This document shows positions 16,229-31,818 of a stretch of 46,859 bases of DNA, one piece after another (positions within the stretch are counted from its first letter, which is position 1; every line of letters begins with the position of its first letter). A program made the position numbers and the translations under genes. The DNA is from an uncultured Methanosarcinales archaeon (GTDB lineage: Archaea; Nanobdellota; Nanobdellia; Woesearchaeales; CAYSVS01): assembly GCA_964434475.1 (NCBI GenBank), contig CAYSVS010000003.1:1-46859 (forward strand), given 5' to 3'. The notes beneath the pieces were generated by a model. That model was not told where the DNA came from and did no database searches. It saw nothing but the letters and a program-made list of their open reading frames with translations.

Positions 16229-16713
16229 TGAAAGATATGGAAGAAACGCTAAAATCCATAAACAAGGAGATATTGACTGAAAAGAATTCAGCTTTGAAAT
16301 CGATAACCAAGTTAGAGAAAAAGCAGAACTTGAAGGTTGCTGATATTGAGTATGAACTTGATGAGTTGAAATCCAAATATTCTAAATTGGATGAGAAGAA
16401 AAAATATCTCGATAAGAAGATAACCGCTGCAGATAAGAAGTTAGAATCTTTGTCGAAAAAGAAAGAAAGGAAGCAGAACTCGATAGATAAGCTTAAGAAA
16501 GCGGTTGAAAAACTGAAAGAGATAGAGAAAGAATACAATAGCCTGGATAAGGATGAAAAGAATATGAAAGAGAACAAAAATACCATATCTGGTCTTCTAA
16601 AGGAACTGAAGAACATAATTAAGATAAAGCAGAAAAAAGAAAAAATGCTCAAATCTGCTTTGAAAAAGTTGAAGAAGGAAGAATATCAGCTTAAGAATAT
16701 AAGGTTCAAATGA
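16225..16713 (+). CDS. K/E-rich coiled-coil protein (162 aa), function unknown
   Basis: ATGA overlap with the upstream stop (16225-16228) and GGTGA 4 nt upstream. Heptad-like K/E/L composition throughout. Confidence 0.7.
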   Translation: MMKDMEETLKSINKEILTEKNSALKSITKLEKKQNLKVADIEYELDELKSKYSKLDEKKKYLDKKITAADKKLESLSKKKERKQNSIDKLKKAVEKLKEIEKEYNSLDKDEKNMKENKNTISGLLKELKNIIKIKQKKEKMLKSALKKLKKEEYQLKNIRFK

Positions 16714-17822: not shown

Positions 17823-17826
17823 TCTT

Positions 17827-18813
17827 ATGCAAAATTCAAGAAACAGAAAAAAATTTAGGCCTAAAGTTTTTTTTAAAAAAAAGAACTTTTTTAAAAACAA
17901 GTCTGGTAAGTCTAAAGATATAAGAGATGAAAACAACATTTTTCTTAAAAGATATTCTAAACTAGGGCAAGAGATTGATGTTAAGAGTATCGAGCTGAAG
18001 AAAACTATAAGAGTTAATTCTCTTAAGATAGATTCTGATGAGTTGGTCAATAGGCTGGAGAAAAAGAGAGTTAAACTTGAGAAGATTGATTTTCTTGATT
18101 TTGGCTATAGTTATAGATCATACTTTTCTTTAGGATCTACTCCTGAGTATCTTATGGGATATTATTTTCTACAGAAAACAGCTTCACAGATTCCTGTTCA
18201 AGTTTTAGATGCTGTGCCTGGAGAAGTTATATTGGATATGTGTGCTGCACCTGGTGGAAAAACATCGCAGATTGCACAGTATATGAATAATAAAGGTGTA
18301 GTTGTAGCGATAGATAACAGAAGTAGAAGAGTAGATGCTTTGAAAAACAATCTACAACGTATGGGTGTGAATAATTGCATAGTATATAAGATGGATGCTT
18401 TGGATGTTGCCAAATTAGGGATTAAGTTTGATAAGATTATCCTGGATGCTCCTTGTTCAGGTAATTTTGTTACAGACGAGGATTGGTTCAATAAGAGAGA
18501 TATTGAAGGTGTACAGAAAAATGCTAAAAACCAGCGCGAGATGTTGAAAGCGGCGTTTTCTGTGCTTAAGAAAGATGGTGTTTTGGTTTACAGCACTTGT
18601 TCATTAGAGCCAGAAGAGAATGAGATGAACATCAATTGGCTTATGGACAATTTCAAGACAAAGATAGAGGATATAGATGTCAATATAGGTTCCAAAGGTT
18701 TGACTAAGGTTTTTAACAATAAATTAAGAAAAGAGTTAAGCAAAACAAGAAGATTCTGGCCTAATCTTACTGGTACACAAGGGTTTTATGTTGCAAAGAT
18801 CAGGAAGAGATAA
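17827..18813 (+). CDS. NOL1/NOP2/Sun-family RNA cytosine-C5 methyltransferase with a polybasic N-terminal extension
   Basis: SAM motif DMCAAPGGKTSQIAQ and catalytic Cys motifs DAPCSGNF and YSTCSLEPEENE. GGAGG at 17813-17817, 9 nt upstream of the ATG. Confidence 0.9.
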   Translation: MQNSRNRKKFRPKVFFKKKNFFKNKSGKSKDIRDENNIFLKRYSKLGQEIDVKSIELKKTIRVNSLKIDSDELVNRLEKKRVKLEKIDFLDFGYSYRSYFSLGSTPEYLMGYYFLQKTASQIPVQVLDAVPGEVILDMCAAPGGKTSQIAQYMNNKGVVVAIDNRSRRVDALKNNLQRMGVNNCIVYKMDALDVAKLGIKFDKIILDAPCSGNFVTDEDWFNKRDIEGVQKNAKNQREMLKAAFSVLKKDGVLVYSTCSLEPEENEMNINWLMDNFKTKIEDIDVNIGSKGLTKVFNNKLRKELSKTRRFWPNLTGTQGFYVAKIRKR

Positions 18814-18855
18814 AGGGACTAAATTCAAATATTTTTGCATTATGCTGAGGATTTT

Positions 18856-19731
18856 TCAATTATATTTTTCGTTATAAAATTGTTCTAAATCTTCTGGCTT
18901 GTTTTTTATCTGTTTTAGGATGCTTATAGCATAATCTCCTTCATATGAATCTCTGATAGACAATATTTTGACCATTTCAAGATTCTCTTTGTAGTACTGA
19001 AGAGTATTCCAAAAAAAATATTTGCTGACATTGAATTTGCCTTTTAATATACTGTTAAATTGTCTGTCCAACACATATGCTTCATCGCAGTTAATAAATA
19101 CTGGGATTATGTTCTTTGGAACAGTATTGTTTGGCTTAAGTTTAAAATAAAAACCTTCTGCATCCAATATCGTATGATTGCATTCATGGTCAATTGTCGA
19201 TTTTATATCATCCTCTTTATTTAAGCAAAATGCTGAATCAAATATGTATATCTTTGATTTAATGGTGTATTGGCCGAATATATCAAAGTCTCGCTTTGAA
19301 ATCCCGCATAGTGTGAATTCATTTTCATGTTCATAATCTCTTGCACTTTTTATTTGAGGTATCTCGCTCTGAATAAATTTTTTTTTAATTCCTTTGCATT
19401 CATTTGCCGCAATCTCATATTTTTCAAGAAGCCTATCTAATGTACAGCAATATTCTACTTCTGTTACATATTTAAACTCAAAATTTTTTTTATGGTCTTC
19501 CACTAGCTTTGCAATGTATTTTTGCCTTAATCTTGGCTTGTTAATCGCATTATTGTATGTTAATCTGTTAGAATATAGCCACCCTCCTATACTAATTCCT
19601 AAGAAAAGTGCAGATATGCCTATTTTTTGGCATAATGATGCTGTAGCTGTATTTTTATTCCATTCACTATTAATTTTTTGGTCTTTGTCATTATCTACGT
19701 AACTCTTATTTATCATATCTCCGATAGGCAT
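18856..19731 (-). CDS. Hypothetical single-pass membrane protein with an HExxH motif (possible zinc metallopeptidase)
   Basis: ORF track gives 18856-19776 from a TTG. In-frame ATGs at 19731 (MPIGD) and 19716 (MINKSY) sit downstream of TATA-like boxes. TM helix IGISALFLGISIGGWLY. Motif IDHECNHTI. Confidence 0.6.
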   Translation of the reverse strand: MPIGDMINKSYVDNDKDQKINSEWNKNTATASLCQKIGISALFLGISIGGWLYSNRLTYNNAINKPRLRQKYIAKLVEDHKKNFEFKYVTEVEYCCTLDRLLEKYEIAANECKGIKKKFIQSEIPQIKSARDYEHENEFTLCGISKRDFDIFGQYTIKSKIYIFDSAFCLNKEDDIKSTIDHECNHTILDAEGFYFKLKPNNTVPKNIIPVFINCDEAYVLDRQFNSILKGKFNVSKYFFWNTLQYYKENLEMVKILSIRDSYEGDYAISILKQIKNKPEDLEQFYNEKYN

Positions 19732-19758
19732 TAAAAATATATAAATCAATCCAAAAGA

Positions 19759-19769
19759 TTTATAAATAA
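19759..19769 (+). promoter_or_regulatory. TATA box candidate for the 5S rRNA gene
   Basis: TTTATAAATAA is centred about 25 nt upstream of the predicted 5S 5' end (G19789). Confidence 0.45.
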
Positions 19770-19788
19770 GCCTCAAATTCTATATATT

Positions 19789-19931
19789 GGACGGCCATAG
19801 GGGTGGGGTTCACCTGTTCCCATATTCTGATGGTTAATCCCACAGGAGGGGAGTTCGAACACAGAAGTTAAGACTACTTCCGTTCGTGTGTGTACTGCAC
19901 TTATGTGCGGGAAATCACGAAAGCTGTCCAT
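19789..19931 (+). rRNA. 5S: 5S ribosomal RNA (about 143 nt) with a roughly 30-nt insertion in loop C; ends +/-3 nt
   Basis: GGACGGCCATAG..CACCTGTTCCCAT[30 nt]TTCGAACACAGAAGTTAAGAC..GTACTGCACTTATGTGCGGGAA. Helix I pairs GGACGGC (19789-19795) with GCTGTCC (19923-19929). Helix III pairs CTGT/ACAG, helix V pairs TTCGTG/CACGAA, and helix IV is GCAC-TTAT-GTGC. The gene is a GC-rich island in AT-rich DNA. Confidence 0.9.
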
Positions 19932-19951
19932 CTTTTTATTATTTCTTTTTT
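19932..19951 (+). terminator. Oligo-T tracts after the 5S gene (archaeal-type termination signal)
   Basis: CTTTTTATTATTTCTTTTTT lies immediately 3' of helix I. Confidence 0.5.
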
Positions 19952-20039
19952 AGATTATTGTGGTTATTTAATATTTGTCTTTAATGTATCTCTAATTACT
20001 GATTGTTGCACTGGACACACTGGACAGGTGTGCGTGAGA

Positions 20040-20047
20040 TATATAAA
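20040..20047 (+). promoter_or_regulatory. TATA box candidate for the LAGLIDADG gene (leaderless)
   Basis: TATATAAA is centred about 25-26 nt upstream of the ATG at 20069. Confidence 0.45.
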
Positions 20048-20068
20048 TGGGCTTTGCATTATAATTTT

Positions 20069-20896
20069 ATGAAATATAATCAAGTAATTGTTTTAAGAAA
20101 AAAAGGACATTCTATTCGAGAAATCTCTAGAATTCTCAATCTGCCATATTCTGTTGTTCAAAGATTGTGCAAAAAAGTTACGATGTCTGAATTAGGTAAG
20201 AACAGATATCATATGAATGTCAAAGGTATAATAAAACAGGCGAATATTGAATTCTTTCTCTCAAAGGAAAAGGTAAGGATTATGTCTAATCTGTTATTTG
20301 ATGGTTCTGTATATGTTAGTGGTTATCATTATTCTGTAATGTATGTGAATTCGTCTTATGATCTAGTTAAACAATTTATTGATGATATGTTTAAAGTATA
20401 TGGTGTTAATTATTCTTCTTTTGAAACTCATGATGGGAAAATTAACAAATATTATAGGGTCAAGTATATTTCAAAATTAATTTATTCAGATTTATTGAAA
20501 TATTTTAATACATATTCTACTTCTGATATTAAATGTAGTATTCCTGAATTTTTTTTTGATAATGATATATTTATAAGAACATTGCTTAGGTCTTTTTGGG
20601 ATAATGAAGGTTCAATATCAAAATCAGGTAAACTATCTGCTGATTTAAAGAATGAAAACGTAATTAAACAGCTTTCACGATTACATAATTATCTTAAGTT
20701 AAATCATTATATTTCTAGGTATTGGAAATCCGGATGGGCTTATAAAATAATATTGAATAAGTCTCGTCAAAATTATATGAGATTTATAGATTTAGGTTTG
20801 TTTTCTGATTCTATAATTTGTAAAGGAATATTTGCTGGAAAAAAGAAAAGAGATATCTTGCAAAAATATTTTGAAAATCACAAATTTAGATTGTGA
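20069..20896 (+). CDS. Free-standing double-motif LAGLIDADG homing-endonuclease-like protein with an N-terminal HTH
   Basis: HTH-like VLRKKGHSIREISRILNLPYSVVQRL. Motif 1 is NLLFDGSVY and motif 2 is LRSFWDNEGSI, with both acidic residues retained. The ATG at 20069 is preferred over the track start at 20003 because of the TATA box spacing. Confidence 0.8.
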   Translation: MKYNQVIVLRKKGHSIREISRILNLPYSVVQRLCKKVTMSELGKNRYHMNVKGIIKQANIEFFLSKEKVRIMSNLLFDGSVYVSGYHYSVMYVNSSYDLVKQFIDDMFKVYGVNYSSFETHDGKINKYYRVKYISKLIYSDLLKYFNTYSTSDIKCSIPEFFFDNDIFIRTLLRSFWDNEGSISKSGKLSADLKNENVIKQLSRLHNYLKLNHYISRYWKSGWAYKIILNKSRQNYMRFIDLGLFSDSIICKGIFAGKKKRDILQKYFENHKFRL

Positions 20897-21695
20897 TTCC
20901 TCTAAACTTCTTTACATCTGCTTTTGTGTGTATATGTACTTCTTTTTCGCTTGACAGATGTCCTGATAATAGTCCTCTTTCAGCAAGCTTTGGAAACACT
21001 TCGTATTCTAAGCTTGTTCCATCATAGTTTAGAAGTTGCGGATCTGCTATAAAAATACTGCTAAATCCTAGATATATGTCAGTTTTTTTTGGCTTTTGTT
21101 CGAATGCTAATATTTTATTTCCTTCTATCTTTACTATGCCTTTCTTTGAAGGTGTTGGACTTGTTGTTAACATTAATGTTGCAATGGATTTTGTCATTAT
21201 ATGTTGCTTCCATATTTCTTCGATGTTTATTTTAGAAAATATCAAGTCTCCATATACTACGAGGAAGTTTGAATTTATTTTGCCTTTCAGTAATTTCAAT
21301 GATGTTGCTGTGCCTTTATTTTCTTTGTCTTCTATATAGTTGATTTTTACTCCATACTCTGATCCGTCTTTAAGAATTTCAAAAATTGAAGTCAAAACTT
21401 TGTGTTCTGCTACAATAAATATGCTTTTGAAATTATTTTCCCTTAATTTTTTAACTGCTAATTCGCATACTGTTGAAGAGTTTATTCTCGCAGTAGGCCT
21501 ATACTCTGTTTCAGAGATTTTTAATTGATCTGCTTTGCCTCCTGCTAAAATAACTGCTGTTTTGTTCTCGCCTAATGCTGCGTTTGCAAGATATTCGATG
21601 GCTTGACTTCTATTTTGTATAAATATATTATCTACTGTTCTATCTATATCTTTTAGTGTTTTTTCGCTTATTGTGATTGATATTTTTTTCTTCAT
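20886..21695 (-). CDS. Ribbon-helix-helix (CopG-like) domain fused to a nucleotidyltransferase-fold (sugar-1-P NTP-transferase-like) domain with a degenerate signature
   Basis: MKKKISITISEKTLKDIDRTVDNIFIQNRSQAIEYLANAAL follows the CopG/RHH pattern. It is followed by AVILAGGKADQL (canonical LAGGxGTRL), GTATSL and VVYGDLIF. A TATA box (RC of 21717-21724) lies about 26 nt upstream of the ATG. Confidence 0.7.
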   Translation of the reverse strand: MKKKISITISEKTLKDIDRTVDNIFIQNRSQAIEYLANAALGENKTAVILAGGKADQLKISETEYRPTARINSSTVCELAVKKLRENNFKSIFIVAEHKVLTSIFEILKDGSEYGVKINYIEDKENKGTATSLKLLKGKINSNFLVVYGDLIFSKINIEEIWKQHIMTKSIATLMLTTSPTPSKKGIVKIEGNKILAFEQKPKKTDIYLGFSSIFIADPQLLNYDGTSLEYEVFPKLAERGLLSGHLSSEKEVHIHTKADVKKFRGITI

Positions 21696-21736
21696 TTGTT
21701 AAAATTATGTCTTTTTATATTTAAGTTTTGCGCAAG

Positions 21737-21766
21737 GGTAAGATAAAGTAGGATACTGGTAAGATA
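21737..21766. promoter_or_regulatory. Two copies of GGTAAGATA spaced 21 bp apart, abutting the ugd TATA-like box (candidate operator)
   Basis: GGTAAGATA occurs at 21737-21745 and 21758-21766. ATATATAAAT follows at 21764-21773. The SD-like AAGGTGA precedes the ATG at 21818. Confidence 0.3.
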
Positions 21767-21817
21767 TATAAATGTTTTGAAATTATAGTTTTTTATTATA
21801 TTAATTAAGGTGATAAT

Positions 21818-23110
21818 ATGAAAATAACAATTATAGGTACTGGATATGTTGGACTGGTTACAGGAACTTGCTTGGCTAATCTAGGTAATGAAGTCGTTTG
21901 TTTAGACATAGACAAAGAAAAGATAGATAATCTTAACAAAGGTATATTGCCGATTTATGAATCAGGATTAAAGGAGCTTGTGGAAATAAATGTCAATGAA
22001 AAAAGGCTTGTTTTTACAACAGATTATGAGTATGCAGTAAAAGCTTCAGAAATAATATTTATCGCTGTAGGCACTCCTCAAGCAGAGAACGGAGAAGCAG
22101 ATTTAAGTTATGTAAAAGCAGCTGCAAAGAGCATAGGCCAATACATGGATGGATATAAGGTTGTTGTTGATAAAAGCACTGTGCCAGTAGGAACTGCTGA
22201 TATGGTAAAAGAAATAATATCTGAAAATTCAGATAAGGAAGTGGATGTTGTCAGTAATCCTGAATTTTTAAGGGAAGGAGCAGCTATAAAAGATTTTATG
22301 ACTCCTGATAGGATAGTTATAGGTGTAGAAAGCGAGAAAGCTAAAGAAATCATGCTGAAGCTTTACAAGCCTCTAGAAAGGGTAGGAAAGCCCATAGTTA
22401 TTACAGACATCAAAAGCTCTGAAATGACCAAGTACGCTTCAAATGCTATGCTTGCAACAAGGATTAGTTTTATGAATGAAATCTCAAGATTGTGTGAGAA
22501 AACAGGCGGAGATGTTAAGGCTGTTGCTAGAGGCATTGGCCTTGATACAAGGATAGGTCCTAGATTTTTGCAGGCAGGAGTAGGTTATGGAGGAAGCTGC
22601 TTTCCGAAAGATGTTCGTGCTTTGATCAAAACTGGAGAAAATAATGATGTTGAGTTTAAGATATTAAAGTCAGTAGATGATGTTAATGAAGAGCAGAAGA
22701 AATTATTGCTTCCTAAAATTGAAAAATTAGCAGGGGATTTAGAAGGCAAGAAAATCGCGATATGGGGTTTGGCATTTAAACCAAAGACAGATGATATAAG
22801 AGAAGCGCCTGCAATAATTGTGATTAAACAATTATTGGAAAAAGGTGCTAAAATTTCAGCTTTTGATCCAGTAGCAAAAGATAATTTTTCAAAATTATTT
22901 GACAATATAGAGTATGGAGATACACCTTATGATGTTCTTCAGGATGCGGATGCTTTAGTTATATTGACAGAGTGGGATAATTTCAGGGAGCTTGATAAGG
23001 TGAAGATGAAATATCTGATGAATAGTCCTAATGTTGTGGATGGAAGAAATGTATATGATCCAAAAGATATGAGGGATGCTGGGTTTGAATATGTTGGGGT
23101 TGGAAGATAG
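21818..23110 (+). CDS. ugd: UDP-glucose 6-dehydrogenase
   Basis: MKITIIGTGYVGLVTG (Rossmann fold), the catalytic GGSCFPKDV motif, typical length of 430 aa. Confidence 0.92.
   Translation: MKITIIGTGYVGLVTGTCLANLGNEVVCLDIDKEKIDNLNKGILPIYESGLKELVEINVNEKRLVFTTDYEYAVKASEIIFIAVGTPQAENGEADLSYVKAAAKSIGQYMDGYKVVVDKSTVPVGTADMVKEIISENSDKEVDVVSNPEFLREGAAIKDFMTPDRIVIGVESEKAKEIMLKLYKPLERVGKPIVITDIKSSEMTKYASNAMLATRISFMNEISRLCEKTGGDVKAVARGIGLDTRIGPRFLQAGVGYGGSCFPKDVRALIKTGENNDVEFKILKSVDDVNEEQKKLLLPKIEKLAGDLEGKKIAIWGLAFKPKTDDIREAPAIIVIKQLLEKGAKISAFDPVAKDNFSKLFDNIEYGDTPYDVLQDADALVILTEWDNFRELDKVKMKYLMNSPNVVDGRNVYDPKDMRDAGFEYVGVGR
23084..23108. repeat. 25-bp direct repeat, left copy (last 8 codons of ugd)
   Basis: TTTGAATATGTTGGGGTTGGAAGAT is identical to 25955-25979. 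Confidence 0.95.
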
Positions 23111-23545
23111 ATTATTCATGATTTTGTATGTTATATCTTTTATTTATATTCAAGGTATTAGCATACATTCATATCATATTTAATATTTTTTTAATTTTTA
23201 TAAGTAAGCACTAAAAATAAAGTTTTTAGACGTTTAAGGATAATCTTTGATTAGATTTTTATTTTGAATTTATGGTATATATTTCATAAACAATATTTAG
23301 TCTTTTGATCTATATAAAAAAGATACAGATTGAATTCCTTTTTTTTTAAAATATATTTTGGTATTGAATCTTTGCACAATATTATTGACCTAAGTTGTTG
23401 TTAATTATATCTAAATAATTACTATAAATTTTGTTACAAAAACAAAATAATCCTAAATAGCGAAATTTGAGAGTAGATTTTTTATCTAGAATATGAACTA
23501 GAAATAAAATTGTATTTTTATCAGATAATTTTTAGTTTGGTTTTG

Positions 23546-24010
23546 TTATAAAATATCTATTAAATTTCTTGCTTTTTTTATATCATCATCGCTTATGTTA
23601 TCAAGAATTATTCGTATTTTTAAAAGTAAATCTCTTAATTTGTTGGAATCATAATCAACAGGCCTGTTTTTTAGATAATATTGGTTGTCTATACGAAGTT
23701 GTTTATCATATTCCAGGATTAAAGATAATTTAATATCTATGAATTGTTCTTTTTCTAGTAATTTTATAATTTCAATTGTGCATGAATGAATCTCACACTT
23801 GATACCTAGTTTCATTAGGATAGCATAAGATGCTAAATATTCCATGTAATACTTTTGTGTTGAAAGCCACATGTTTGAGCCGGATTTCTTTATCATATTG
23901 CTAACGCGTAAGGTCTCTTCTGCATTGCTAAAATATTCTTCTGATAGGTTATTGTTAGGCTCTATTAGCTTTAATCCTTGTTTTTTACACCATTTTAAAC
24001 TCGTTTTCAT
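23546..24010 (-). CDS. HEPN-domain protein (UPF0332-like), partner of the adjacent nucleotidyltransferase
   Basis: EEYFSNAEETLRVSNMIKKSGSNMWLSTQKYYMEYLASYAILMKLGIKCEIHSCTIEII matches the HEPN helix pattern (A...L......YYA...A..ALL...G......H...I). Its start overlaps the MNT gene by 26 nt. Confidence 0.6.
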   Translation of the reverse strand: MKTSLKWCKKQGLKLIEPNNNLSEEYFSNAEETLRVSNMIKKSGSNMWLSTQKYYMEYLASYAILMKLGIKCEIHSCTIEIIKLLEKEQFIDIKLSLILEYDKQLRIDNQYYLKNRPVDYDSNKLRDLLLKIRIILDNISDDDIKKARNLIDIL

Positions 24011-24548
24011 AAAGTAACCTCACAAAAAGATCATGATTGCTTAATATGATGTGTTTTTTTCTTAGCTCTTCTAAGAATGTTTTTGTTATTGCACTTTTAT
24101 TTGTATTGACTGTATGGACCTTGATGTTATATGTTTGCTCAAAATTCTTTATTATTTTCTTAGGATATTCTTTACCTAATATAAGCAAATCTATATCATT
24201 AAATTTATTATCTGTTGCTGCTGAGCCGAATATGAGAAGATTGATATTAAATGGTCTGATATGTTCGTATAACCGATTAAGTAATGGTTGTTTTTGTAAT
24301 AGTTCGATTGTCCTATTTTTTTCACACATCAATATATATTCTATAGTGATAGGATTAGTTAGGTTTAAATGATAATATAGAAATCTTTCTTTCTTGTTTA
24401 TTATCAATATGTTTCTTTTGACTAGCTTTGCTAAACGAGGCTTTATCTTTTGATGAGCATCAGAGAAAAATCTCTCAAATTCAGATAATTTAACTTCCTT
24501 TCGTAGATTATCGAGGTATATTTCCAAGTAAGTAAAAAAGTTTACCAT
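23985..24548 (-). CDS. Minimal nucleotidyltransferase (MNT) with an N-terminal wHTH-like region
   Basis: The pol-beta NTase signature LIFGSAATDNKFNDIDLLILG (GS..x..DxD). Operonic with the HEPN gene. Confidence 0.7.
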   Translation of the reverse strand: MVNFFTYLEIYLDNLRKEVKLSEFERFFSDAHQKIKPRLAKLVKRNILIINKKERFLYYHLNLTNPITIEYILMCEKNRTIELLQKQPLLNRLYEHIRPFNINLLIFGSAATDNKFNDIDLLILGKEYPKKIIKNFEQTYNIKVHTVNTNKSAITKTFLEELRKKHIILSNHDLFVRLLYENEFKMV

Positions 24549-24606
24549 GAGGTAAGATTTATTACCTTAACTATTTAAACTTTTCTTTTTTTTGTTGGAA
24601 GGTAGA

Positions 24607-25776
24607 TTATTCACTCATCCATTTCCAAACAGGGATGATTTTTATATCATCTATCTTGTCTTCTTGATCTAATGTTATTATTATTCCTTTTTTACATTTA
24701 GTTTTTTTCATTGCTTCTTTTAAGCCATCTATTTCTCTTTTTAAGTTGTCTTGATTTAGATTATAGCATACCTGTATTGCTTTTATTATTGAGTTTTTTT
24801 CTTTAATTAAAAAGTCACATTCATTGTCTTCTAAAAAATAATGTATTTTTTTGTGCATTCTTCTTAGATGTAGATATACAGCATTTTCAAGTATCCTGCC
24901 TTTGTCTTTAGAAAACGATAGTGTGTTTGCTCTTATTAGGCCTGTATCTATTGCATAAGTTTTTTTTGGATTTACTAGCTGTTTTGATATTGATTGACTA
25001 TATTGTGTTATTGATTCTATTAGATAACTTTCTTCTAGATAATTGCAGTAATCTATTGTTGTTCTTACTGATTTTATGCCTAATTTTTTTGAGATTTTAT
25101 TATATGAAAAAATTTTTGCAACATTGCTTAGTATAAAATTAGCTAATTCATATATTGTACTTTCATTTTTTATATTATTTCTTACTATTATGTCTCTAGC
25201 TATTATATTTTCGACAAGTCTTTGAAGATATTCATCTTCTTTGGATCTTAAATATTCTGGAAAACCTCCATCTTCTAGATATCTTTCAAATGTTTTTAGT
25301 GATGGTTCTAATTTTTTAAATCGTAAGTATTCATTATATGAAAAAGGAAATAGTTCAATTAATTTGTATCGTCCTGTTAGCTTTGTGCCTAATTCTTTAC
25401 TTAACATTGTTGCATTTGAGCCAGTGATGAATATTTTTTTATTATTGTCGTGTGCTGATCTTATATAGCTTTCCCAATTATCTATGTTTTGAATTTCATC
25501 AAATAGATATATTTTGCTCTTAAACAAATCTTCAAGCTTTATGAAGTCTTCTACCTCAAATTTTAGTAATCTAGGGTCTTCAAAGGTTAGAAAATTATAA
25601 TCTTTATCTTTTAATGCATTTTTTAGAAGTGTACTTTTTCCACATCTTCTTATTCCTGAAATTATAACTATTTGATCTGTTTTAAAGTCTAATTTTGTAT
25701 CCCTTTTTATTATATCTTTCTTTAAAGGCGTTTTTCTTTGTTTCTCGATTATTTTTATTAATTCTTCTTTTAGCAT
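24607..25776 (-). CDS. AAA ATPase of the COG1373 type (AAA_14 + DUF4143-like C-terminus)
   Basis: P-loop ISGIRRCGKSTLL, Walker B-like IYLFDEIQ, and a C-terminal ECDFLIKEKNSIIKAIQVCY resembling the EVDFV...IEVK segment of this family. Confidence 0.75.
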   Translation of the reverse strand: MLKEELIKIIEKQRKTPLKKDIIKRDTKLDFKTDQIVIISGIRRCGKSTLLKNALKDKDYNFLTFEDPRLLKFEVEDFIKLEDLFKSKIYLFDEIQNIDNWESYIRSAHDNNKKIFITGSNATMLSKELGTKLTGRYKLIELFPFSYNEYLRFKKLEPSLKTFERYLEDGGFPEYLRSKEDEYLQRLVENIIARDIIVRNNIKNESTIYELANFILSNVAKIFSYNKISKKLGIKSVRTTIDYCNYLEESYLIESITQYSQSISKQLVNPKKTYAIDTGLIRANTLSFSKDKGRILENAVYLHLRRMHKKIHYFLEDNECDFLIKEKNSIIKAIQVCYNLNQDNLKREIDGLKEAMKKTKCKKGIIITLDQEDKIDDIKIIPVWKWMSE

Positions 25777-25873
25777 AATACTTTGATAATTGTTGTTTAT
25801 TTATAAATGTTTGTATTACCAATACAAGCTTTTATGTATTTGCAGTACAAGCTTTTATTTACTCTTAGTAAGT

Positions 25874-25881
25874 TTTATATA
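25874..25881 (+). promoter_or_regulatory. Outward-facing TATA box candidate at the right end of the insertion
   Basis: TTTATATA is centred about 26 nt upstream of the ATG at 25904. Confidence 0.4.
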
Positions 25882-25903
25882 ATATTTCTTGTTTTTTTCT
25901 AAT

Positions 25904-25981
25904 ATGAAAGCGATGAGTTTTAAGTCAAGGCTGTATGTTTTAAAAATATCACGATTTGAATATGTTGGGGTTGGAAGATGA
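25904..25981 (+). other. 25-codon mini-ORF ending in the duplicated ugd tail (MKAMSFKSRLYVLKISRFEYVGVGR*), with its stop overlapping the downstream ATG
   Basis: Read directly: ATG at 25904 is in frame with the repeat copy. The TGA at 25979-25981 overlaps the ATG at 25978-25980. Confidence 0.35.
25955..25979. repeat. 25-bp direct repeat, right copy
   Basis: Identical to 23084-23108. Confidence 0.95.
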
Positions 25982-27228
25982 ATGAGCATTCAAAGTTATC
26001 TTTGGATAATATTGATTCTTACATGAAGTCTGCTTTAGTATCTGTTAAAGAGCAGTTAGAAAAGCATTACTCTGATCTAAGCCTTGTTAATATAGATTCA
26101 CTTGATGTTGATAAGATAAATGTATATCCTAGATTAAAGGAACTTCGTGACCTATCGCATGATGATATATTTGTCTTGGATGATGTTGATACAACCGCTG
26201 CGAAAAAGGCAATATTAGATGGTAAGATTATTTTTGAGCATGCATTTGCTGGTGAGGCAACAAGGCTAGGGCTTGGAACTAAGTATCTTATCAGGCCAAA
26301 GGATATTGATGCTTCAGTTTTGGATTATTCACTTGGCGAGCGTCATATGATGCAGCTTGCTTATGAGATAAAGAAACTTGCTAAAGAAAAAAGTTTGGAT
26401 GCTAGTGAAATATTGTCTAAGCAGGTTAATATAGTAATACTAAATGAGAAGACTTATCAGGATATAATAGATAATTTTATTGCTAATGATTTTTTTGGAT
26501 TCTTGCCTAAGAATACATTATTTATGGTGCAATTTAGCTTTAATGGTATGAGTATTAAGGATGGAGAGCTTGTTTATGATAAATTGGGTGATAAGCGTCT
26601 TCATAATCATGGTCAGATGGTGATGCAAAAGGCGCATGATAATAGTTTGTTTTATATTGATGATAATAAGAAAGTATATCTGAGTTCTTTAGAGTTTGAA
26701 GATATCCTAACTAGACATCTTAACCTGATGTCATTTCCTATAGAAGATGTTGGGCTTCTTACTGAGTTCTTGGACTTAAAAAGCATAGCAAAGTCTTTAG
26801 AGTTAGCTAAAGATGGTTATGAGATGGTAATGGAGATAGTTGGGCAGAATAAGGATAATCCACAGAAAGGTGGTGCAGCATTTTATGATCCTTTATTGAA
26901 GCGTAATGTGATGATTGAGAGCAATAGGCTTCTTGGGCTTAGAAATGAGGAGATTAAGCATCTAAATAAGAATGTAAACCATTACCCTAATCCTGTTAAG
27001 TCGTTTCGTGCTTTAAAGAATAGTGGTATTCACATGTGCTTTGCTGTAAAAAAGTCTGATAAGCCTTATATCTATCCGTGTCCTGTTCAGGGTGATATTA
27101 ATTTCTTGGTTAAGACAGCTTTTGTTATGCGAAAGAAGCCTAAGCCGATTATGGCATGGAAGAAGCTAGAGGATACTGATTTGGCTGTTTTGCAGATGAA
27201 AAAGCAGGATTCTGTGAGCAAGATTTAA
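25978..27228 (+). CDS. UDPGP-family-like nucleotide-sugar pyrophosphorylase (divergent)
   Basis: FAGEATRLGLGTKYL resembles LAGGQGTRLG..PKG. The ordered motifs VQFSF, HNHGQMV, PIEDVG and NPQKGGAAF are collinear with UDP-sugar pyrophosphorylases. Ancestrally coupled to ugd. Confidence 0.45.
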   Translation: MNEHSKLSLDNIDSYMKSALVSVKEQLEKHYSDLSLVNIDSLDVDKINVYPRLKELRDLSHDDIFVLDDVDTTAAKKAILDGKIIFEHAFAGEATRLGLGTKYLIRPKDIDASVLDYSLGERHMMQLAYEIKKLAKEKSLDASEILSKQVNIVILNEKTYQDIIDNFIANDFFGFLPKNTLFMVQFSFNGMSIKDGELVYDKLGDKRLHNHGQMVMQKAHDNSLFYIDDNKKVYLSSLEFEDILTRHLNLMSFPIEDVGLLTEFLDLKSIAKSLELAKDGYEMVMEIVGQNKDNPQKGGAAFYDPLLKRNVMIESNRLLGLRNEEIKHLNKNVNHYPNPVKSFRALKNSGIHMCFAVKKSDKPYIYPCPVQGDINFLVKTAFVMRKKPKPIMAWKKLEDTDLAVLQMKKQDSVSKI

Positions 27229-27253
27229 ATAATAATATCTGTTTTTAATTTTC

Positions 27254-28408
27254 ATGGTTAATATCAATAAGAACAAACCTTCTTTGAATGTTGCTGTTAT
27301 TGGTCCAGTGTATCCTTATAGGGGTGGAATTTCTCATTCAAATACTCAACTATGCAGTAATGTGTCTAAGAATCATAATCTTGTCGCATATTCTTTTAAG
27401 ATGATGTTTCCTAAGTTTCTTTATCCAGGCAAGCAACAAAAATACGAAGAAAACAGGAGACTTGATTTTAATGTTAAGCATATCTTAAATTCCCTTAATC
27501 CTTTTAACTGGCTTAATGTTTTTATGAAATTAAGGAAACAAAATCCTGATGTGGTTATATTTCAATGGTGGACTATATTTATGTTTCCTATGTATATTAC
27601 ATTGGCGCTTATGCTTAGATTATTTACAAAGGCAAAAATATGTATATGGTGTCAAAATGTTATGGATCATGAGCGTAGATTTATTACTGTTTTTTTGACG
27701 AAATTGTTTTATCGTATAGGTGATTATTTCATAGTTATGGCAAATCAGGAAAAGAAAGAACTGTTAAATTTGCTTCCAAATGCTAAAGTAGAAGTGATAT
27801 TCGAGCCAACATATGAACAGCATTTTAGCATACCTCTTGGTTTGACAAAAGAAAAGGCAAAGTCAGATCTAGGTCTTGATAAAAAAGTGATATTGTTCTT
27901 TGGATTTGTTCGCGCATATAAAGGTTTAAAATATCTCTTGAAAGCAATGCCCAAAATATTAGATAATGTGGATGTCCAGCTTCTTGTTGTAGGTGAGTTT
28001 TGGAATGATAAGAAAGATTATCTTAAACTTATAACTGATTTTAACATAACAGATAATGTCAAGATAGTTGATAAATTTGTACCTGATGACAAGGTTGCAC
28101 CTTATTTTATAGCTTCTGATGTTTTTGTGCTTCCTTATACAAGTGCAACACAGAGCGGTATTATCCAAGTAGCGTTGGGTTTTGATAAGCCTGTTATAGT
28201 TACAGATGTTGGAGGGTTGACTGATTTAGTAGAGAATGAAAAGAATGGGTTGGTTGTTCCTAATAAGGATATTGATAAATTAGCGGATGCTGTTGTTACT
28301 TTTTTCAAAGACAAAAAAGAGACGAAGTTTGCTGAAGGTGCAAGAAAAGTTAAAGAATCCCTTAGATGGGATAAAGAAAAAGAAGAAAGATTGTTTAAGT
28401 ATGTTTAG
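27254..28408 (+). CDS. Glycosyltransferase family 4 (GT-B)
   Basis: C-terminal LPYTSATQSGIIQVALGFDKPVIVTDVGGLTDLVENEKNGLVVP (the E-x7-E region of GT4). Confidence 0.8.
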   Translation: MVNINKNKPSLNVAVIGPVYPYRGGISHSNTQLCSNVSKNHNLVAYSFKMMFPKFLYPGKQQKYEENRRLDFNVKHILNSLNPFNWLNVFMKLRKQNPDVVIFQWWTIFMFPMYITLALMLRLFTKAKICIWCQNVMDHERRFITVFLTKLFYRIGDYFIVMANQEKKELLNLLPNAKVEVIFEPTYEQHFSIPLGLTKEKAKSDLGLDKKVILFFGFVRAYKGLKYLLKAMPKILDNVDVQLLVVGEFWNDKKDYLKLITDFNITDNVKIVDKFVPDDKVAPYFIASDVFVLPYTSATQSGIIQVALGFDKPVIVTDVGGLTDLVENEKNGLVVPNKDIDKLADAVVTFFKDKKETKFAEGARKVKESLRWDKEKEERLFKYV

Positions 28409-29475
28409 TTTTGATAAAATTCTTTTATAGCATCGCATATTTTGCTTATTGTTTTACTATCAAGAGATGCGGTTGAAGGTAATGATAATCCATGTTCGTA
28501 AGCATATTCGGCGTTAGGATATTCTCCTTCAAAATTATAACATGGTTGTTTGTGCATGGGATAGAAAAACCTTCTTGAACTTATGTTTCTTTCCTTTAAG
28601 AAATCGGAAAGGCCCTGGACATCTTTAACTAAAATGTTTGTAAACCAATGTACTGGTGTGCATCTTTCATCTATTTTTGTAAATTCAACTATTCCTTCAA
28701 GCTCTTTCATATATTGTTCTCTGATTTCTTTTTTTCTTTTGATTATATAGTTTAATTTTTTCATCTGTACTACTGCTATTGCTGCTTGCATATCTGTATA
28801 ACTAAAGTTAAATCCTATTTTTTCATGTATAAAAATTCCTTTCTTATCTCTACCGTGGTTTTTCATACGGTATGCGTCTTTCGCTATCTCTTCGTTGTTT
28901 GTTGTAAAGACTCCTCCTTCTCCGCTGGTTATAGTTTTATTTCCGTATAAACTGAAACTTCCTGCCTCGCCAAATGTACCTACATGTTTTCCTTTAAATT
29001 TTACTCCTACTCCTTGAGCGGCATCTTCAATAACTTTTAGGTTATGTTTTTTAGCAATTTTCATTATAGCATCCATATCTGCAGATTGGCCGTATAAGTG
29101 GACAGGCATGATAGCTTTTGTTTTGTTTGTTATTCTTTCTTCAATTTTTTTAGGATCTATATTGAATGTTTCTTTATCTATGTCTACTAAGACAGGTTTT
29201 GCATTAGCAAATAAAATGGAATTTATTGTTGCAACAAATGTTATGCTTGGTACTATAATCTCGTCTCCCTCTTTGATGCCTAATATCTTTAATGCAGTAA
29301 ATAGTGTTGCTGTCCCGTTGCAGAATGCTAATGCGTACTTAGATTTTGTCAATTCTTTGAACATATCTTCAAATTTCTTTGTTTCTTTTCCTTCGGTCAA
29401 CCATGTTGATTTGATGACTTTAGTCATCTCTTTAAGTTCTTCTTCATCTATTATGGGTTCAATTTGTGGTATCAT
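28405..29475 (-). CDS. DegT/DnrJ/EryC1/StrS-family sugar aminotransferase (PLP-dependent)
   Basis: [31 protein letters not shown] and DAAQGVG. PLP-binding Lys in SFSLYGNKTITSGEGG. Confidence 0.85.
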   Translation of the reverse strand: MIPQIEPIIDEEELKEMTKVIKSTWLTEGKETKKFEDMFKELTKSKYALAFCNGTATLFTALKILGIKEGDEIIVPSITFVATINSILFANAKPVLVDIDKETFNIDPKKIEERITNKTKAIMPVHLYGQSADMDAIMKIAKKHNLKVIEDAAQGVGVKFKGKHVGTFGEAGSFSLYGNKTITSGEGGVFTTNNEEIAKDAYRMKNHGRDKKGIFIHEKIGFNFSYTDMQAAIAVVQMKKLNYIIKRKKEIREQYMKELEGIVEFTKIDERCTPVHWFTNILVKDVQGLSDFLKERNISSRRFFYPMHKQPCYNFEGEYPNAEYAYEHGLSLPSTASLDSKTISKICDAIKEFYQN

Positions 29476-30682
29476 CTTTGACTACTTCCTTTAATGTTTT
29501 TATTATGTATTCTATATCTTCTTGTTTAAGATATTGGTGGCATCCTATGTAAAATCCTTTTTTTCCTATTCTGTCGCTGTTTGGTAGTTTGCCTTCATAC
29601 TCTATTTTATACTTGCTGAAGGCAGGTTGTTGTGTGGGTATAGAACCGAATAAAGGTCTTGTTTCTATGCCTTTTTTCTCTAGTTTATTCATCAATATTT
29701 CTCTATCTATATTATTTTTTATGACAAGAGGATAAGCTATGTAACTTACATCTTTGGAAAAATTAGGCAGTTTTAACTGTTCGCTTAAGCAGGAAATACC
29801 TTCGTTTATCTGTTTTATGTTTTCTTGTCTTTTTTTGATTATTTCATTAATTTTTTTGAACTGAGCGCAGGCTATCGCCGCTTGAAATTCGGTAGTTTTA
29901 AAATTATATCCTATCATGTCGTGAAGAAATCTTGGATCAGGAGAATCATTTTTTTCTCTTTTTGGACAATAACCTTTATTTCTGGTACATATAGGGCAAT
30001 CACACATTCTTCCATTGGCTTTTATTTTTCTGATAACTCTTGCAAGCTCGTCATCATCCGTAACTATTGCACCCATTTCTCCTGCTTGTATGTTGTGTGC
30101 TATATAGAATGAGTAATCAGAAAGTTTTGACATGCTCCCGCACACTTTTCCGTTAAATTTGGTTCCGTGAGCTTGGGCACTGTCCTCAAACGTGATTAAT
30201 CCATGTTTTTTAGCAATCTTGTTGATTTTATTCATATCGCAAGGATATCCCATCAGATGTACGGGAAATATTAAAGAATAATCTGATGAGTCTTCTAATG
30301 ATTCAAGATGTTCTTTGATTTTTTCAGGATTTATATTGAACGTTTCAGGTTCTATATCTATGTAGACAGGAGTATGGTTTGTATTTATTATTGCGTTGCT
30401 TGTTGCAACATATGTTAATGGAGTGGTTATTATTTTTGAGTTCTGCTTTATGTCTTCTTTATACTCTATTGCTTTTATTCCTGCCATTATAGCTGTTGTA
30501 CCAGAATTAGTCAATATGCAATTTTTAACGCCTATAAAATCTGCCCACTTTTGTTCAAACTCATTTACAAACTTTCCTTCTGATATTCTGCCTGATTCAA
30601 CTACTTGGTTTATGTTATTCTTCTCTTCAAATCCTATTTTGATTGAGCCTACGCTTATTCTTCTTTTAGAATCTTTCGTCAT
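29459..30682 (-). CDS. DegT-family sugar 3-dehydratase-like enzyme (ColD / E1-RfbH type, Lys replaced by His) with an extra Cys cluster
   Basis: [25 protein letters not shown], compared with ColD FSSFYSHHIATMEGGCIVTDDEE (from memory). Cys cluster [19 protein letters not shown]. 17-nt overlaps with both neighbouring genes. Confidence 0.65.
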
Positions 30683-31715: not shown

Positions 31716-31818
31716 TTTGAATTTAAGTTTTTTTAACTTTATTTAAACTTTGTTGTGTTTTTTAGTGTTTGTTTAAAAATAAATAATAATATTTAAATAG
31801 TATACTATTTGGCTTTTA

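Follow-up and report, generated by a model that had tools for sequence, protein, structure and literature searches.

Within the window, which is the whole 46,859 bp stretch of DNA that was analysed, a 2.87 kb segment separates ugd from the gene downstream of it. The segment is flanked by the 25-mer TTTGAATATGTTGGGGTTGGAAGAT as a perfect direct repeat, with 2,846 bp between the two copies. There are exactly two copies in the 46,859 bp window and none further when up to 3 mismatches are allowed; 0 of 100 dinucleotide shuffles matched the 25-mer. The locus was first described as carrying this repeat, three ORFs on the minus strand, two AT-rich arms, the TATA box TTTTATATA and a 25-codon ORF, and all are present (Table 1). 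Also borne out is the absence of mobility functions: domain and defence profile searches found no integrase or transposase domain in any ORF checked, and neither the whole insert nor either of its sub-units has terminal inverted repeats (TIRs).

The two AT-rich arms have a GC content of 18.5% and 23%, compared with 31.7% for the window, and the insert genes have 25.6–27.5%, compared with 34.6–35.8% for ugd and the downstream gene. The GC3 of the ATPase gene is 15.9%.

Table 1. Features of the ugd locus and its insert, by position in the window
Feature	Position	Strand	Basis or remarks
ugd, UDP-glucose/GDP-mannose dehydrogenase, insertion target	21818-23110	+	Three UDPG_MGDP_dh Pfam domains, E 1e-71 to 6e-34
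Left 25 bp direct repeat copy (attL-like), perfect	23084-23108	+	Last 8 ugd codons (FEYVGVGR) and T of TAG stop
Hybrid junction repeat copy 1, 20 nt, GTTGGAAGATAGATTATTCA	23099-23118	+	10 nt of ugd tail and 10 nt identical to ATPase stop region
Left AT-rich non-coding arm, 437 nt, unit A	23109-23545	.	Composition
HEPN-fold protein, UPF0332-like, 154 aa, putative PDC-M05-type MNT partner	23546-24010	-	Homologs, structure
Minimal nucleotidyltransferase (MNT), 187 aa	23985-24548	-	PF01909 NTP_transf_2, 22.6 bits against cut-off of 21
Candidate TATA box of MNT-HEPN operon, TTTAAATA	24572-24579	-	23 nt upstream of ATG; fits promoter pattern of window
Hybrid junction repeat copy 2, 20 nt, GTTGGAAGGTAGATTATTCA	24594-24613	+	1 mismatch; overlaps ATPase stop codon
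AAA_14 and DUF4143 (COG1373-type) ATPase, unit B cargo	24607-25776	-	PF13173 E 3e-33, PF13635 E 6e-24
ATPase promoter/operator, TATA TTTATAAAT at 25799-25807 and two palindromes	25796-25859	-	Conserved upstream of homologs
Outward TATA-like box TTTTATATA, candidate promoter for downstream genes	25873-25881	+	22 nt before mini-ORF ATG
Mini-ORF, 25 codons, MKAMSFKSRLYVLKISRFEYVGVGR then stop	25904-25981	+	Crosses right repeat copy, stops on downstream ATGA
Second candidate TATA-like box, TTTTAAAAATA	25938-25948	+	29 nt upstream of downstream ATG
Right 25 bp direct repeat copy (attR-like), perfect	25955-25979	+	Repeat searches
Downstream gene, 416 aa	25978-27228	+	Family without characterised function, conserved in DPANN, CPR and Desulfobacterota

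The target gene pair

The ugd gene is intact. Its stop codon is now TAG in place of TGA, with the AG supplied by the insert, as had been read from the sequence initially. The right repeat copy keeps the native 23 nt 5' of the downstream start codon and the first two bases of that codon, and terminates in the ATGA that links the mini-ORF stop with the downstream ATG at 25978. Searches of Pfam and NCBIfam with the downstream protein gave no match. It has 595 homologs, and alignment with these shows an intact N-terminus. Against the PDB, the profile of this family matches UDP-GlcNAc pyrophosphorylases only (best E 0.0038), and the family may bear a weak resemblance to the UDP-sugar pyrophosphorylases.

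In silico deletion of one 25-mer copy and the intervening 2,846 bp gives an ATGA-overlapped ugd/downstream pair again, and ATGA overlaps are also present at three other gene junctions of the window. In four related DPANN loci (L011, L021, L024 and L025), ugd precedes its partner in the same orientation, and the two genes overlap or are 2–5 nt apart, with neither repeat nor insert between them. This set includes both of the closest ugd relatives; the ugd proteins of L011 and L025 are 61–65% identical to that of the window. The direct adjacency in these relatives and the intact downstream N-terminus uphold the claim of the first-pass annotation that a once-coupled gene pair was split by insertion.

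Three Logan contigs from run SRR7048224 tile the window at 100% identity. Both junctions are well within these contigs and are reproduced by this independent assembly, while the contig ends fall inside the insert, away from the 25 bp repeat. The Logan assembler uses a k of 31, longer than the repeat, therefore repeat-induced chimerism is unlikely. It is very improbable that there was no insertion and that the locus is instead an assembly chimera or an old fixed arrangement, in which the downstream block was translocated with 25 bp of the ugd tail. Although only one sample carries the locus, the Logan contigs break within the insert, and relatives differ in gene order near the downstream gene (ugd follows its partner in L018 and L028), precise deletion gives back an overlap conserved in the closest relatives and the cargo is modular and foreign in composition. 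For an old event, the two 25-mer copies are unexpectedly 100% identical.

Composite structure and cargo

The insert was initially taken to be a single element. A 20 nt sequence spanning the left junction recurs inside it, against a chance expectation of 0.03 matches (≤3 mismatches). This partial junction copy at 24594-24613 was overlooked at first reading. It contains sequence from the 3' end of the ATPase gene, and the C-terminus encoded there (...WKWMSE, then stop) is native to the ATPase family; this indicates two events on one core. The internal copy separates unit A from unit B; the insert is composite, with two or more units that are nested or in tandem. Each cargo module is a self-contained unit with a promoter of its own, and both are found in many unrelated contexts elsewhere. 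The solo ATPase and MNT-HEPN modules found elsewhere have no comparable flanking repeats, with the exception of an operator duplication in L104.

Unit A consists of the MNT and HEPN-fold pair and the left arm. The two ORFs share 26 nt and make up a bicistronic TA-like module, which is also present in L089, L094 and L100 in unrelated contexts. The MNT matches the PADLOC model PDC-M05A (E 1.4e-6); no PADLOC model matched the HEPN protein. The latter has 877 homologs, those from DPANN being 60–75% identical and some annotated as UPF0332 or PF05168. PF05168 was the top family for 19 of the 19 aligned members, with a best E of 1.4e-5 and 0.13 for the copy in the window. An AF2 model of the protein (pLDDT 94.6) gave top Foldseek matches that are all HEPN proteins, including AF0298 (prob 1.00). 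The canonical Rx4-6H motif was not conserved when the protein was checked for it. No ORF, Rfam match or likeness to any fetched locus was found for the left arm, the oligo-T runs of which could terminate ugd transcripts.

Unit B consists of the ATPase with its own operator and promoter, and about 95 nt of unique sequence. The ATPase corresponds to the PADLOC phage-defence candidate PDC-S01 (E 5e-109), its closest homologs being 68% identical solo genes in unrelated contexts. The palindromes of the operator, TGTAYT-N3-ARTACA, are at 25812-25826 and 25835-25849 with 23 bp spacing, and the operator module is found upstream of the ATPase in 5 of the 5 other homolog loci examined, with 76–89% nucleotide identity. 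The right arm, previously described as non-coding, is in part this conserved operator and promoter.

The right arm also faces the downstream genes. The geometry of the TTTTATATA box fits that of genuine leaderless promoters in the window, and about 1% of shuffles in a post-hoc test gave a TATA with an in-frame ATG and a frame open to TGA. The downstream glycosylation genes probably owe their transcription to a TATA box in this arm, and the mini-ORF may have a coupling role. The TTTTAAAAATA box is a rival promoter, which could drive the downstream gene without mini-ORF coupling. The outward promoter originally proposed thus agrees with the leaderless pattern of the genome, while its claim on the downstream gene is shared with a second candidate.

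Origin of the insert

A history of at least two successive recombinations at one core in the last ugd codons is moderately likely for the composite islet, which now lacks any recombinase. The shared recombination core would be 10 nt, GTTGGAAGRT, at the 3' end of ugd. Starting from a ugd/downstream pair translationally coupled through an ATGA overlap, unit B (the PDC-S01 cassette) would have recombined into the ugd tail, generating the 25 bp repeat on both sides, giving ugd its new TAG stop and leaving the sequence 5' of the downstream gene in its native state. Unit A would then have entered the ugd/B junction, generating the second repeat of 20 nt, made up in equal parts of ugd tail and ATPase stop region. 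The process may have been att-site recombination followed by integrase loss, or the units may have been mobilised by an integrase whose gene lies elsewhere. The islet would then be an archaeal counterpart of the bacterial cis-mobilizable element built by accretion.

The internal repeat copies a hybrid target, the ugd tail and the end of unit B, which is an observation against the att model in that target-site duplication explains it more simply. The att model requires that the attP of unit A held the ATPase stop region by common descent. It is unlikely, however, that foreign DNA was inserted twice at nearly one place with the target duplicated each time and no attP x attB recombination, whether by some enzyme acting in trans with staggered cuts 20–25 nt apart or by template-switching (MMBIR/FoSTeS-type) at the G-rich TTGGGGTTGG tract. 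Both repeats do correspond to the target as it would have stood at insertion, 25 nt of ugd tail and then 20 nt over the ugd/B junction including native ATPase stop-codon sequence, and units A and B share no end sequences, have no TIRs and are not accompanied by an integrase. To our knowledge, though, no prokaryotic transposase or casposase makes regular 20–25 bp duplications; those of casposons are about 14–15 bp, and the TIRs and Cas1 that casposons carry are absent here. For two rare replication accidents to have occurred independently at the same spot would be unparsimonious unless it is a hotspot, and placement at a gene 3' end with exact ORF restoration is a hallmark of att recombination (PMC6563490).

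Entry independent of an integrase is quite improbable. A circle already bearing a short copy of the ugd tail, possibly DNA excised through repeat-repeat recombination in a sibling strain, would have been integrated by host homologous recombination over 20–25 bp of homology. While a single crossover gives exactly one homology-length direct repeat per side, and the repeats are perfect or near-perfect, 20–25 bp is short for RadA-type recombination. The origin of the first repeat-bearing circle would be left unexplained, and searches gave no donor, with no second copy of unit A, unit B or the arms in viral, phage and plasmid collections. In favour of this route, excision by homologous recombination independent of an integrase has been discussed for archaeal tandem arrays (PMC8371274).

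In L088, a different organism, a ugd with only 66% nucleotide identity has the identical 25-mer at its end. MGE-like genes come after it (Dcm methylases, a phage-type MTase and small zinc-ribbon ORFs) where the usual partner gene would be expected. This locus was located by searching with the 25-mer itself, and by our own estimate from codon usage a chance match is expected in roughly 1% of AT-rich ugd genes that encode this tail peptide; the locus is therefore only suggestive evidence. The single metagenome scan used the 25-mer only as query. The one 47 kb window and one sample yielded neither a cognate integrase nor a circular form, and no empty site at species level.

Comparison with known systems

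The best reading of the islet is as an att-flanked, integrase-less segment with putative defence cargo, which resembles the CIMEs of bacteria or a decayed integrated element of archaea. At the fda gene of Streptococcus thermophilus the repeat is 27 bp. CIMEs there, related to ICESt1/ICESt3, likewise consist of cargo flanked by attL and attR at the 3' end of a housekeeping protein gene, lack integration and transfer genes, and are composite, accretion through serial events at one site having left a chimeric internal att-like site (PMC5704250). These come from bacteria, mostly span many kb, and have a demonstrated relationship to integrase-bearing ICEs with the same att, whereas the islet has a DPANN host, is 2.9 kb, has no known cognate integrase-bearing element, and has an internal repeat that includes element-derived sequence.

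Like the islet, integrated elements of Thaumarchaeota have archaeal hosts and att sites at gene 3' ends, and one site is re-used in tandem. In these, 14 of 68 are in the 3' ends of protein genes, and tandem arrays and element-supplied stop codons are found (PMC6563490). The replacement of TGA by TAG in ugd parallels that of TAG by TAA at NitEve-E2; the new stop, once seen as part of a special 'repair kit', is documented behaviour of archaeal integrated elements and standard att biology. The repeat length, which had been considered anomalous, is within the archaeal att range of 8 to over 25 bp in Thaumarchaeota and 29–69 bp in Crenarchaeota (PMC6563490). Tandem integration and integrase loss after integration are also known in archaea (PMC8371274). 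The archaeal elements described so far are mostly larger proviruses or cryptic elements that retain the integrase, whereas the islet is a minimal structure of two putative defence units in another archaeal lineage, DPANN, and the targets quoted from PMC6563490 do not include ugd.

The cargo appears to comprise two putative anti-virus gene systems. The ATPase with its PD-(D/E)XK-type DUF4143 is like PDC-S01, and the MNT and HEPN-fold pair is organised like PDC-M05. Both are enriched in archaea, and compact candidates of this kind are enriched in DPANN genomes (PMC12988326). These names cover putative defence candidates, the cargo but not the insertion.

Prochlorococcus tycheposon islands are likewise found in a streamlined genome and grow through successive site-specific integrations with partial att copies between them; degenerate integrase-less remnants pile up, and the cargo includes defence or niche genes (bioRxiv 10.1101/2020.12.28.424599). 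Tycheposons target tRNA genes and have tyrosine or serine recombinases and replication modules, all absent from the ugd islet. The islet appears to be what is left, without an integrase, of at least two site-specific insertions, a pattern already known from other microbes.

The flanking repeat and its junctions

The insert of about 2.87 kb between ugd and the downstream gene is bounded by a perfect direct repeat of 25 bp (25-mer). Allowing up to three mismatches, the 25-mer is found at two sites only in the whole window and in none of 100 dinucleotide-preserving shuffles; the repeat is real and non-random. The left copy is made up of the final eight codons of ugd and the T of its TAG stop. The ugd gene is complete, with three UDPG_MGDP_dh domains and a new TAG stop at its 3' end. 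The right copy ends in ATGA, in which TGA is the stop of a 25-codon ORF (mini-ORF) and ATG is the start of the downstream gene. Between the copies are three minus-strand ORFs (ATPase, MNT and HEPN) and two AT-rich non-coding stretches, with GC contents of 18.5% and 23% against 31.7% for the whole window. The repeats, ORFs and arms are thus as described in the first-pass annotation.

The insert is spanned by three tiling Logan contigs of run SRR7048224, each of them 100% identical to the window; both junctions are internal to contigs and the breaks are located within the insert. The first-pass annotation had raised assembly chimerism as an alternative. Since the junctions lie inside contigs and the 25 bp repeat is presumably shorter than the k-mer of the Logan assembler, a repeat-induced chimera is unlikely, with all junction data coming from this one sample. 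A fixed rearrangement or artefact as the origin of the structure is regarded as highly improbable. The contigs cross both junctions unbroken, and therefore no abundant empty-site allele is inferred in this run. The breaks inside the insert could be due to locally low coverage of AT-rich DNA or to cargo that differs between strains. A 15 nt exact fragment of the 25-mer is also present within the 929-aa ORF, in another reading frame. First-order Markov simulations of the window did not produce a match of this length (0 out of 400), and the fragment may be a chance occurrence or a pseudo-attachment site.

Features of the insert, its surroundings and the related loci. Locations are in the window unless a related contig is named; junctions were reconstructed in silico.
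Feature	Location	Sequence or content
4,362-aa ORF, then overlapping 929-aa ORF	351-13439	
15 nt fragment of 25-mer	13852-13866	TATGTTGGGGTTGGA
306-aa ORF and HTH/LAGLIDADG_3 ORF	18856-20896	
ugd	21818-23110 (+)	
25-mer, left copy	23084-23108	TTTGAATATGTTGGGGTTGGAAGAT
20-mer, left junction	23099-23118	GTTGGAAGATAGATTATTCA
Unit A	23119-24593	AT-rich arm, HEPN, MNT, MNT promoter
Third junction-like sequence	24594-24613	GTTGGAAGGTAGATTATTCA
Unit B	24604-25954	ATPase, its operator and promoter, about 95 nt of unique sequence
ATPase operator/promoter	25796-25859	
Double palindrome	25812-25849	
Mini-ORF	25904-25981	25 codons
Second TATA-like box	25938-25948	TTTTAAAAATA
25-mer, right copy	25955-25979	TTTGAATATGTTGGGGTTGGAAGAT
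Downstream gene	25978-27228 (+)	
Logan contig	11818-23815	
Logan contig	23789-25852	
Logan contig	25842-37228	
Logan break	23789-23815	Within HEPN ORF, overlap 27 nt
Logan break	25842-25852	Within ATPase operator, overlap 11 nt
Double palindrome	L084 5880-5917	
Double palindrome	L087 2527-2564	
Double palindrome	L104 4627-4664	
Double palindrome	L105 4928-4965	
Double palindrome	L106 975-1012	
Operator pair and shared 10-mer	L104 4608-4664 and 5896-5992	AAAACAACCA
ATPase homolog neighbourhood	L105 5001-10194	
Dispersed intergenic motif	L094 860-6509; L095-L099	CGGCTGCCTTCT
Empty-site junction		...GATGCTGGG-25mer-GAATGAGC
B-only junction		...GTTGGAAGATAGATTATTCACTCATCC directly after ugd
A+B circle junction		...ATCACGA-25mer-AGATTATTCATGATTTTG
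A circle junction		...CTTTTCTTTTTTTT-20mer-TGATTTTG

The interrupted gene pair

The downstream gene belongs to an uncharacterised family whose proteins are about 480 aa long and which is represented in DPANN archaea, CPR bacteria and Desulfobacterota and has no Pfam or NCBIfam model. Its N-terminus aligns with those of its homologs, the best of which is 53–54% identical, and ATG 25978 is therefore the true start. The protein is shorter than its homologs because a variable internal loop (about 52 aa) and the C-terminal end (about 10 residues) are missing. The family profile resembles UDP-GlcNAc pyrophosphorylases alone, and weakly (E 0.0038), so that calling it a pyrophosphorylase, as was done earlier, is no more than a plausible guess.

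Of 80 related loci, each from a genome representing its species, four have ugd directly upstream in the same orientation, all of them in DPANN MAGs (L011, L021, L024 and L025). These span 41–65% amino acid identity in ugd and include its two closest relatives (61–65%). The overlap of the two genes is 17 nt in L011 and, if L021 uses a GTG start, at most 10 nt there, whereas 2–5 nt separate them in L024 and L025; in all four there is neither a repeat nor intervening sequence between them. Removal of the insert with one copy of the 25-mer in silico generates an ATGA overlap of ugd and the downstream gene, of the kind seen at three further gene junctions of the window. This supports the interruption of a formerly coupled gene pair by the insert. 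The empty site anticipated by the first-pass annotation is thus seen at the family level, but the collections searched held no conspecific genome; in these the ugd and downstream proteins occur in run SRR7048224 only, and a species-level empty site was not found. The GC content of ugd and the downstream gene is 34.6–35.8%; that of the ATPase gene is 25.6% (GC3 15.9%) and that of MNT and HEPN about 27%.

Composite structure of the insert

A repeat search of the window revealed a third junction-like sequence, which differs by one mismatch from a 20-mer at the left junction consisting of the last 10 nt of the 25-mer and the first 10 nt of the insert. The chance expectation for such a match is 0.03 with up to three mismatches allowed. 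The third copy splits the insert into two units, A on the MNT/HEPN side and B on the ATPase side. The second half of the 20-mer is the reverse complement of the last two codons of the ATPase gene, its TAA stop and 3 further nt. Since the ATPase C-terminus (...WKWMSE-stop) is typical of its family, this half is native ATPase sequence.

In the simplest history, B would have entered the ugd tail first, leaving the 25 bp repeat, and A would afterwards have entered the ugd/B junction, leaving the 20 bp hybrid repeat. The reverse order, by accretion, also reproduces the structure if both attP shared the core and 10 nt. Under either order there were at least two recombination events on one 10 nt core, GTTGGAAGRT. 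The att-like insertion proposed in the first-pass annotation is supported, but as serial insertion of two units on one core rather than a single event. A true target-site duplication (TSD) of 20–25 bp at each insertion would be more economical, as both repeats consist purely of the target as it then was, the inner one including native ATPase sequence. However, to our knowledge there is no enzyme that makes true duplications of 20–25 bp, and this explanation is considered unlikely.

The PDC-S01 ATPase and its operator

The ATPase has AAA_14 (PF13173) and DUF4143 (PF13635) domains, both above the cut-offs, and residues 19–388 match the PADLOC putative defence candidate PDC-S01 (PDLC04787) with an E-value of 5.3e-109. 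PDC-S01, in which an ATPase is joined to a domain of the PD-(D/E)XK superfamily, is the fourth commonest defence candidate in prokaryotes, is archaeal-enriched and is without experimental validation (PMC12988326). DUF4143 has been classed in the PD-(D/E)XK superfamily (PMC3424549). The nearest homologs of the ATPase are 68% identical and are solo genes at unrelated sites, as in L104, a Nanoarchaeota MAG, where the gene is between the Nop56-fibrillarin and EF-1alpha-S10 operons.

In six out of six loci the ATPase gene is closely preceded by a double palindrome (TGTAYT-N3-ARTACA), the two copies being spaced by exactly 23 bp, with a TTTATAA TATA box after them. This module is 76–89% conserved at the DNA level among organisms with ATPases that are 58–68% identical, and it is found nowhere else within the six ATPase loci except as duplicated in L104. 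As it is common to all six, the corresponding part of the window is the ATPase's own operator/promoter and not an anonymous arm, which revises the earlier description of this stretch as part of a non-coding right arm. The double palindrome is probably a regulatory, perhaps autoregulatory, operator of the PDC-S01 candidate.

Self-mobility of the ATPase was considered and rejected, as there are no target repeats at five homolog loci, the exception being L104, in which the operator itself is duplicated. Here the ATPase gene is bracketed by the operator pair and a shared 10-mer, and the duplication may be what is left of a former tandem cassette or may point to a role of the palindromes in the exchange of cassettes. 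In L105, a Nanobdellota MAG, the ATPase homolog adjoins an NTP_transf_2 ORF with a 173-aa partner, Fic, and a further NTP_transf_2 ORF. PDC-S01 and MNT-type nucleotidyltransferase modules therefore co-localise elsewhere too, in another orientation.

The MNT-HEPN pair

The MNT protein matches PF01909 (NTP_transf_2) at 22.6 bits, with a cut-off of 21, and weakly matches PADLOC PDC-M05A (E 1.4e-6). Its ORF overlaps that of HEPN by 26 nt, forming a bicistron like those of MNT-HEPN toxin-antitoxin pairs. On its own, the 154-aa HEPN ORF has no significant Pfam match (E 0.13, below threshold). Its family, with 877 matches, is tightly conserved in DPANN at 60–75% identity, with some members annotated as UPF0332 or HEPN, and PF05168 is the top family for all 19 of the members aligned. 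The AF2 model has a pLDDT of 94.6, and its best Foldseek matches in the PDB are all HEPN proteins, AF0298 with a probability of 1.00. Several lines therefore point to a HEPN fold. In the alignment of 19 sequences the canonical Rx4-6H motif is not conserved: the only arginine at this spacing, in LRIDNQYY, is not invariant and is followed by tyrosine instead of histidine. The invariant histidine of the family is within EIHSCT. Judging by the alignment, the HEPN protein could be inactive or of a non-canonical type.

Other DPANN contigs carry the MNT-HEPN bicistron within a type I R-M operon, alongside methyltransferases or adjacent to purD. The module is portable and agrees with the PDC-M05 architecture, which has been described (PMC12988326). 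Repeats flanking other such modules were considered as cassette ends; these are actually a dispersed intergenic motif of another DPANN population, CGGCTGCCTTCT. This GC-rich sequence is present on both strands, with 7 copies in 6.5 kb, and is often trailed by ...ggaatcgtcg(t/c)aaata.... The motif has no relation to the window and is a dispersed element of a regulatory or REP-like type.

The candidate outward promoter and mini-ORF

Genes that are first in their operons in the window have (A)AAG-TTTAAATA or TTTATATA ending about 20–26 nt before a leaderless ATG. The right arm has GTAAG-TTTTATATA, then 22 nt, then ATG 25904, which fits this pattern. When the right arm was shuffled 20,000 times, a properly spaced TATA with an in-frame ATG and an open frame to TGA arose in 1% of cases, a post hoc estimate. 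The insert genes are antisense and there are oligo-T runs in the left arm, so that a new promoter is plausibly required for the downstream genes, with the right arm as its putative source. The second TATA-like box, 29 nt before the downstream ATG, could instead give a near-leaderless mRNA in which the mini-ORF would have no role. Of the 'repair kit' proposed in the first-pass annotation, the restored ugd stop and the fit of the outward TATA to the promoter pattern stand, but stop restoration is ordinary att biology and the translational coupling through the mini-ORF is hypothetical.

Absence of mobility genes and search for other copies

No integrase, transposase, Cas1 or transfer gene was found among the insert ORFs using Pfam, NCBIfam, PHROGs and PADLOC, and no recombinase match among the scanned window ORFs, including the unknown 306-aa ORF. 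Terminal inverted repeats (TIRs) are absent, scores for the whole insert, unit A and unit B being no better than those of shuffles. IS/DDE transposons and casposons are recognised by a transposase or Cas1, TIRs and a short fixed TSD (2–15 bp); with none of these genes or TIRs, and duplications of 25 and 20 bp, the insert is neither. An SSV-type split integrase was likewise rejected, as in the reconstructed circle the mini-ORF still stops (TAG) directly after the 25-mer and is therefore not an int(N) fragment. A decayed ATPase or integrase gene in the left arm was rejected, as tblastn, tblastx and blastn gave no signal and the arm (437 nt) is too short. An RNA gene in the arms was also rejected, since Rfam gave no match with an E-value of 1 or less; the window is without tRNA genes. 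Host enzymes acting by a single crossover on short homology are judged quite unlikely to have made the insertions.

The arms are without ORFs, and the search for related islets proposed in the first-pass annotation gave no similarity of the left or outer right arm to any fetched sequence. Further copies of the 25-mer were also proposed as a lead; there are none elsewhere in the window, and neither the 25-mer, the 20-mer nor close ATPase and MNT relatives are present in IMG/VR. A degenerate ugd-tail pattern gave two matches there, both in an unrelated viral ORF without ugd and attributed to chance. The insert has no match among INPHARED phages or PLSDB plasmids.

The sole match to the 25-mer in a single metagenome scan is in contig L088 (Ga0210043_1003077, 1-4587). 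Its ugd is 66% identical to that of the window in nucleotide sequence and 62% in amino acid sequence, yet ends in an identical 25-mer, contained in the longest exact run between the two (26 nt). This gene is followed by small zinc-ribbon ORFs with PHROG matches, two Dcm-type C5-methylase ORFs and a phage-type phrog_799 DNA methyltransferase, with no usual partner gene, integrase or second repeat copy up to the contig end. The contig would fit a larger mobile element on the same attachment site, itself supplying the shared tail. This is suggestive only, since the 25-mer itself was the query and codon usage alone would produce a match in about 1% of AT-rich ugd genes that have the same tail peptide.

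Two other regions of the window were noted. Two genes upstream of ugd, between an RsmB-like methyltransferase and an NTP-transferase, the 306-aa ORF is paired with a free-standing N-terminal HTH/LAGLIDADG_3 ORF (GC 25%, GC3 18.5%); this pair may be another foreign insertion. In the first third of the window are the 4,362-aa ORF and the overlapping 929-aa ORF, the latter with a weak CarboxypepD_reg match; both probably encode surface proteins of the giant kind that is typical in DPANN.

Proposed acquisition of the islet and comparison with known systems

DPANN archaea have tiny genomes with few CRISPR or R-M systems, and their mobile elements are poorly known. The locus shows at base resolution how PDC-S01 and a PDC-M05-like pair, both compact and putatively defensive, have joined a DPANN genome. 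On the favoured reading they were gained serially at a short core at the 3' end of a housekeeping gene, with no resident recombinase and the flanking operon unbroken. Through L088, the ugd tail is nominated as a possible attachment hotspot, and the exact junction sequences in the table are supplied for read-level excision analysis. With the putative double-palindrome operator, PDC-S01, which is among the most frequent of the uncharacterised defence candidates, has a regulatory element that is open to experiment.

Alternatively, the nested 25 and 20 bp repeats, both purely target sequence, would be the marks of an undescribed integrase-independent DPANN mechanism. It would duplicate 20–25 bp of target at each event and place compact defence cassettes at the 3' ends of conserved genes, with an outward leaderless promoter and a mini-ORF recreating the coupling and keeping the interrupted operon functional. 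Such a mechanism is very unlikely, and more remote is a variant in which the PDC-S01 ATPase-nuclease and its palindromic operator, duplicated in L104, are involved in cassette mobility.

Serial site-specific recombination leaving an integrase-less islet is the somewhat probable explanation, favoured by the archaeal, cis-mobilizable element (CIME) and Prochlorococcus precedents for the repeats, the ORF restoration and the re-use of the site. The repeats at the insert ends are target sequence, as in att-flanked elements. Repeats at the 3' ends of protein genes, an ORF restored exactly by a stop from the element and re-use of the site are features documented for integration by tyrosine recombinases in archaeal genomes. 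In Thaumarchaeota, 14 out of 68 integrated elements are in the 3'-distal parts of protein genes, with att sites of 8 to >25 bp, one swap of TAG to TAA, and tandem arrays (PMC6563490). Archaeal integrated elements without an integrase have been ascribed to gene loss after integration (PMC8371274). Bacterial CIMEs are att-flanked relics without a recombinase, which become composite by accretion and then have a chimeric att site inside them (PMC5704250); the growth of Prochlorococcus islands follows the same course (bioRxiv 10.1101/2020.12.28.424599). On this reading the islet is a decayed or cis-mobilizable integrated element with putative defence cargo, of a known kind, in an under-studied lineage.
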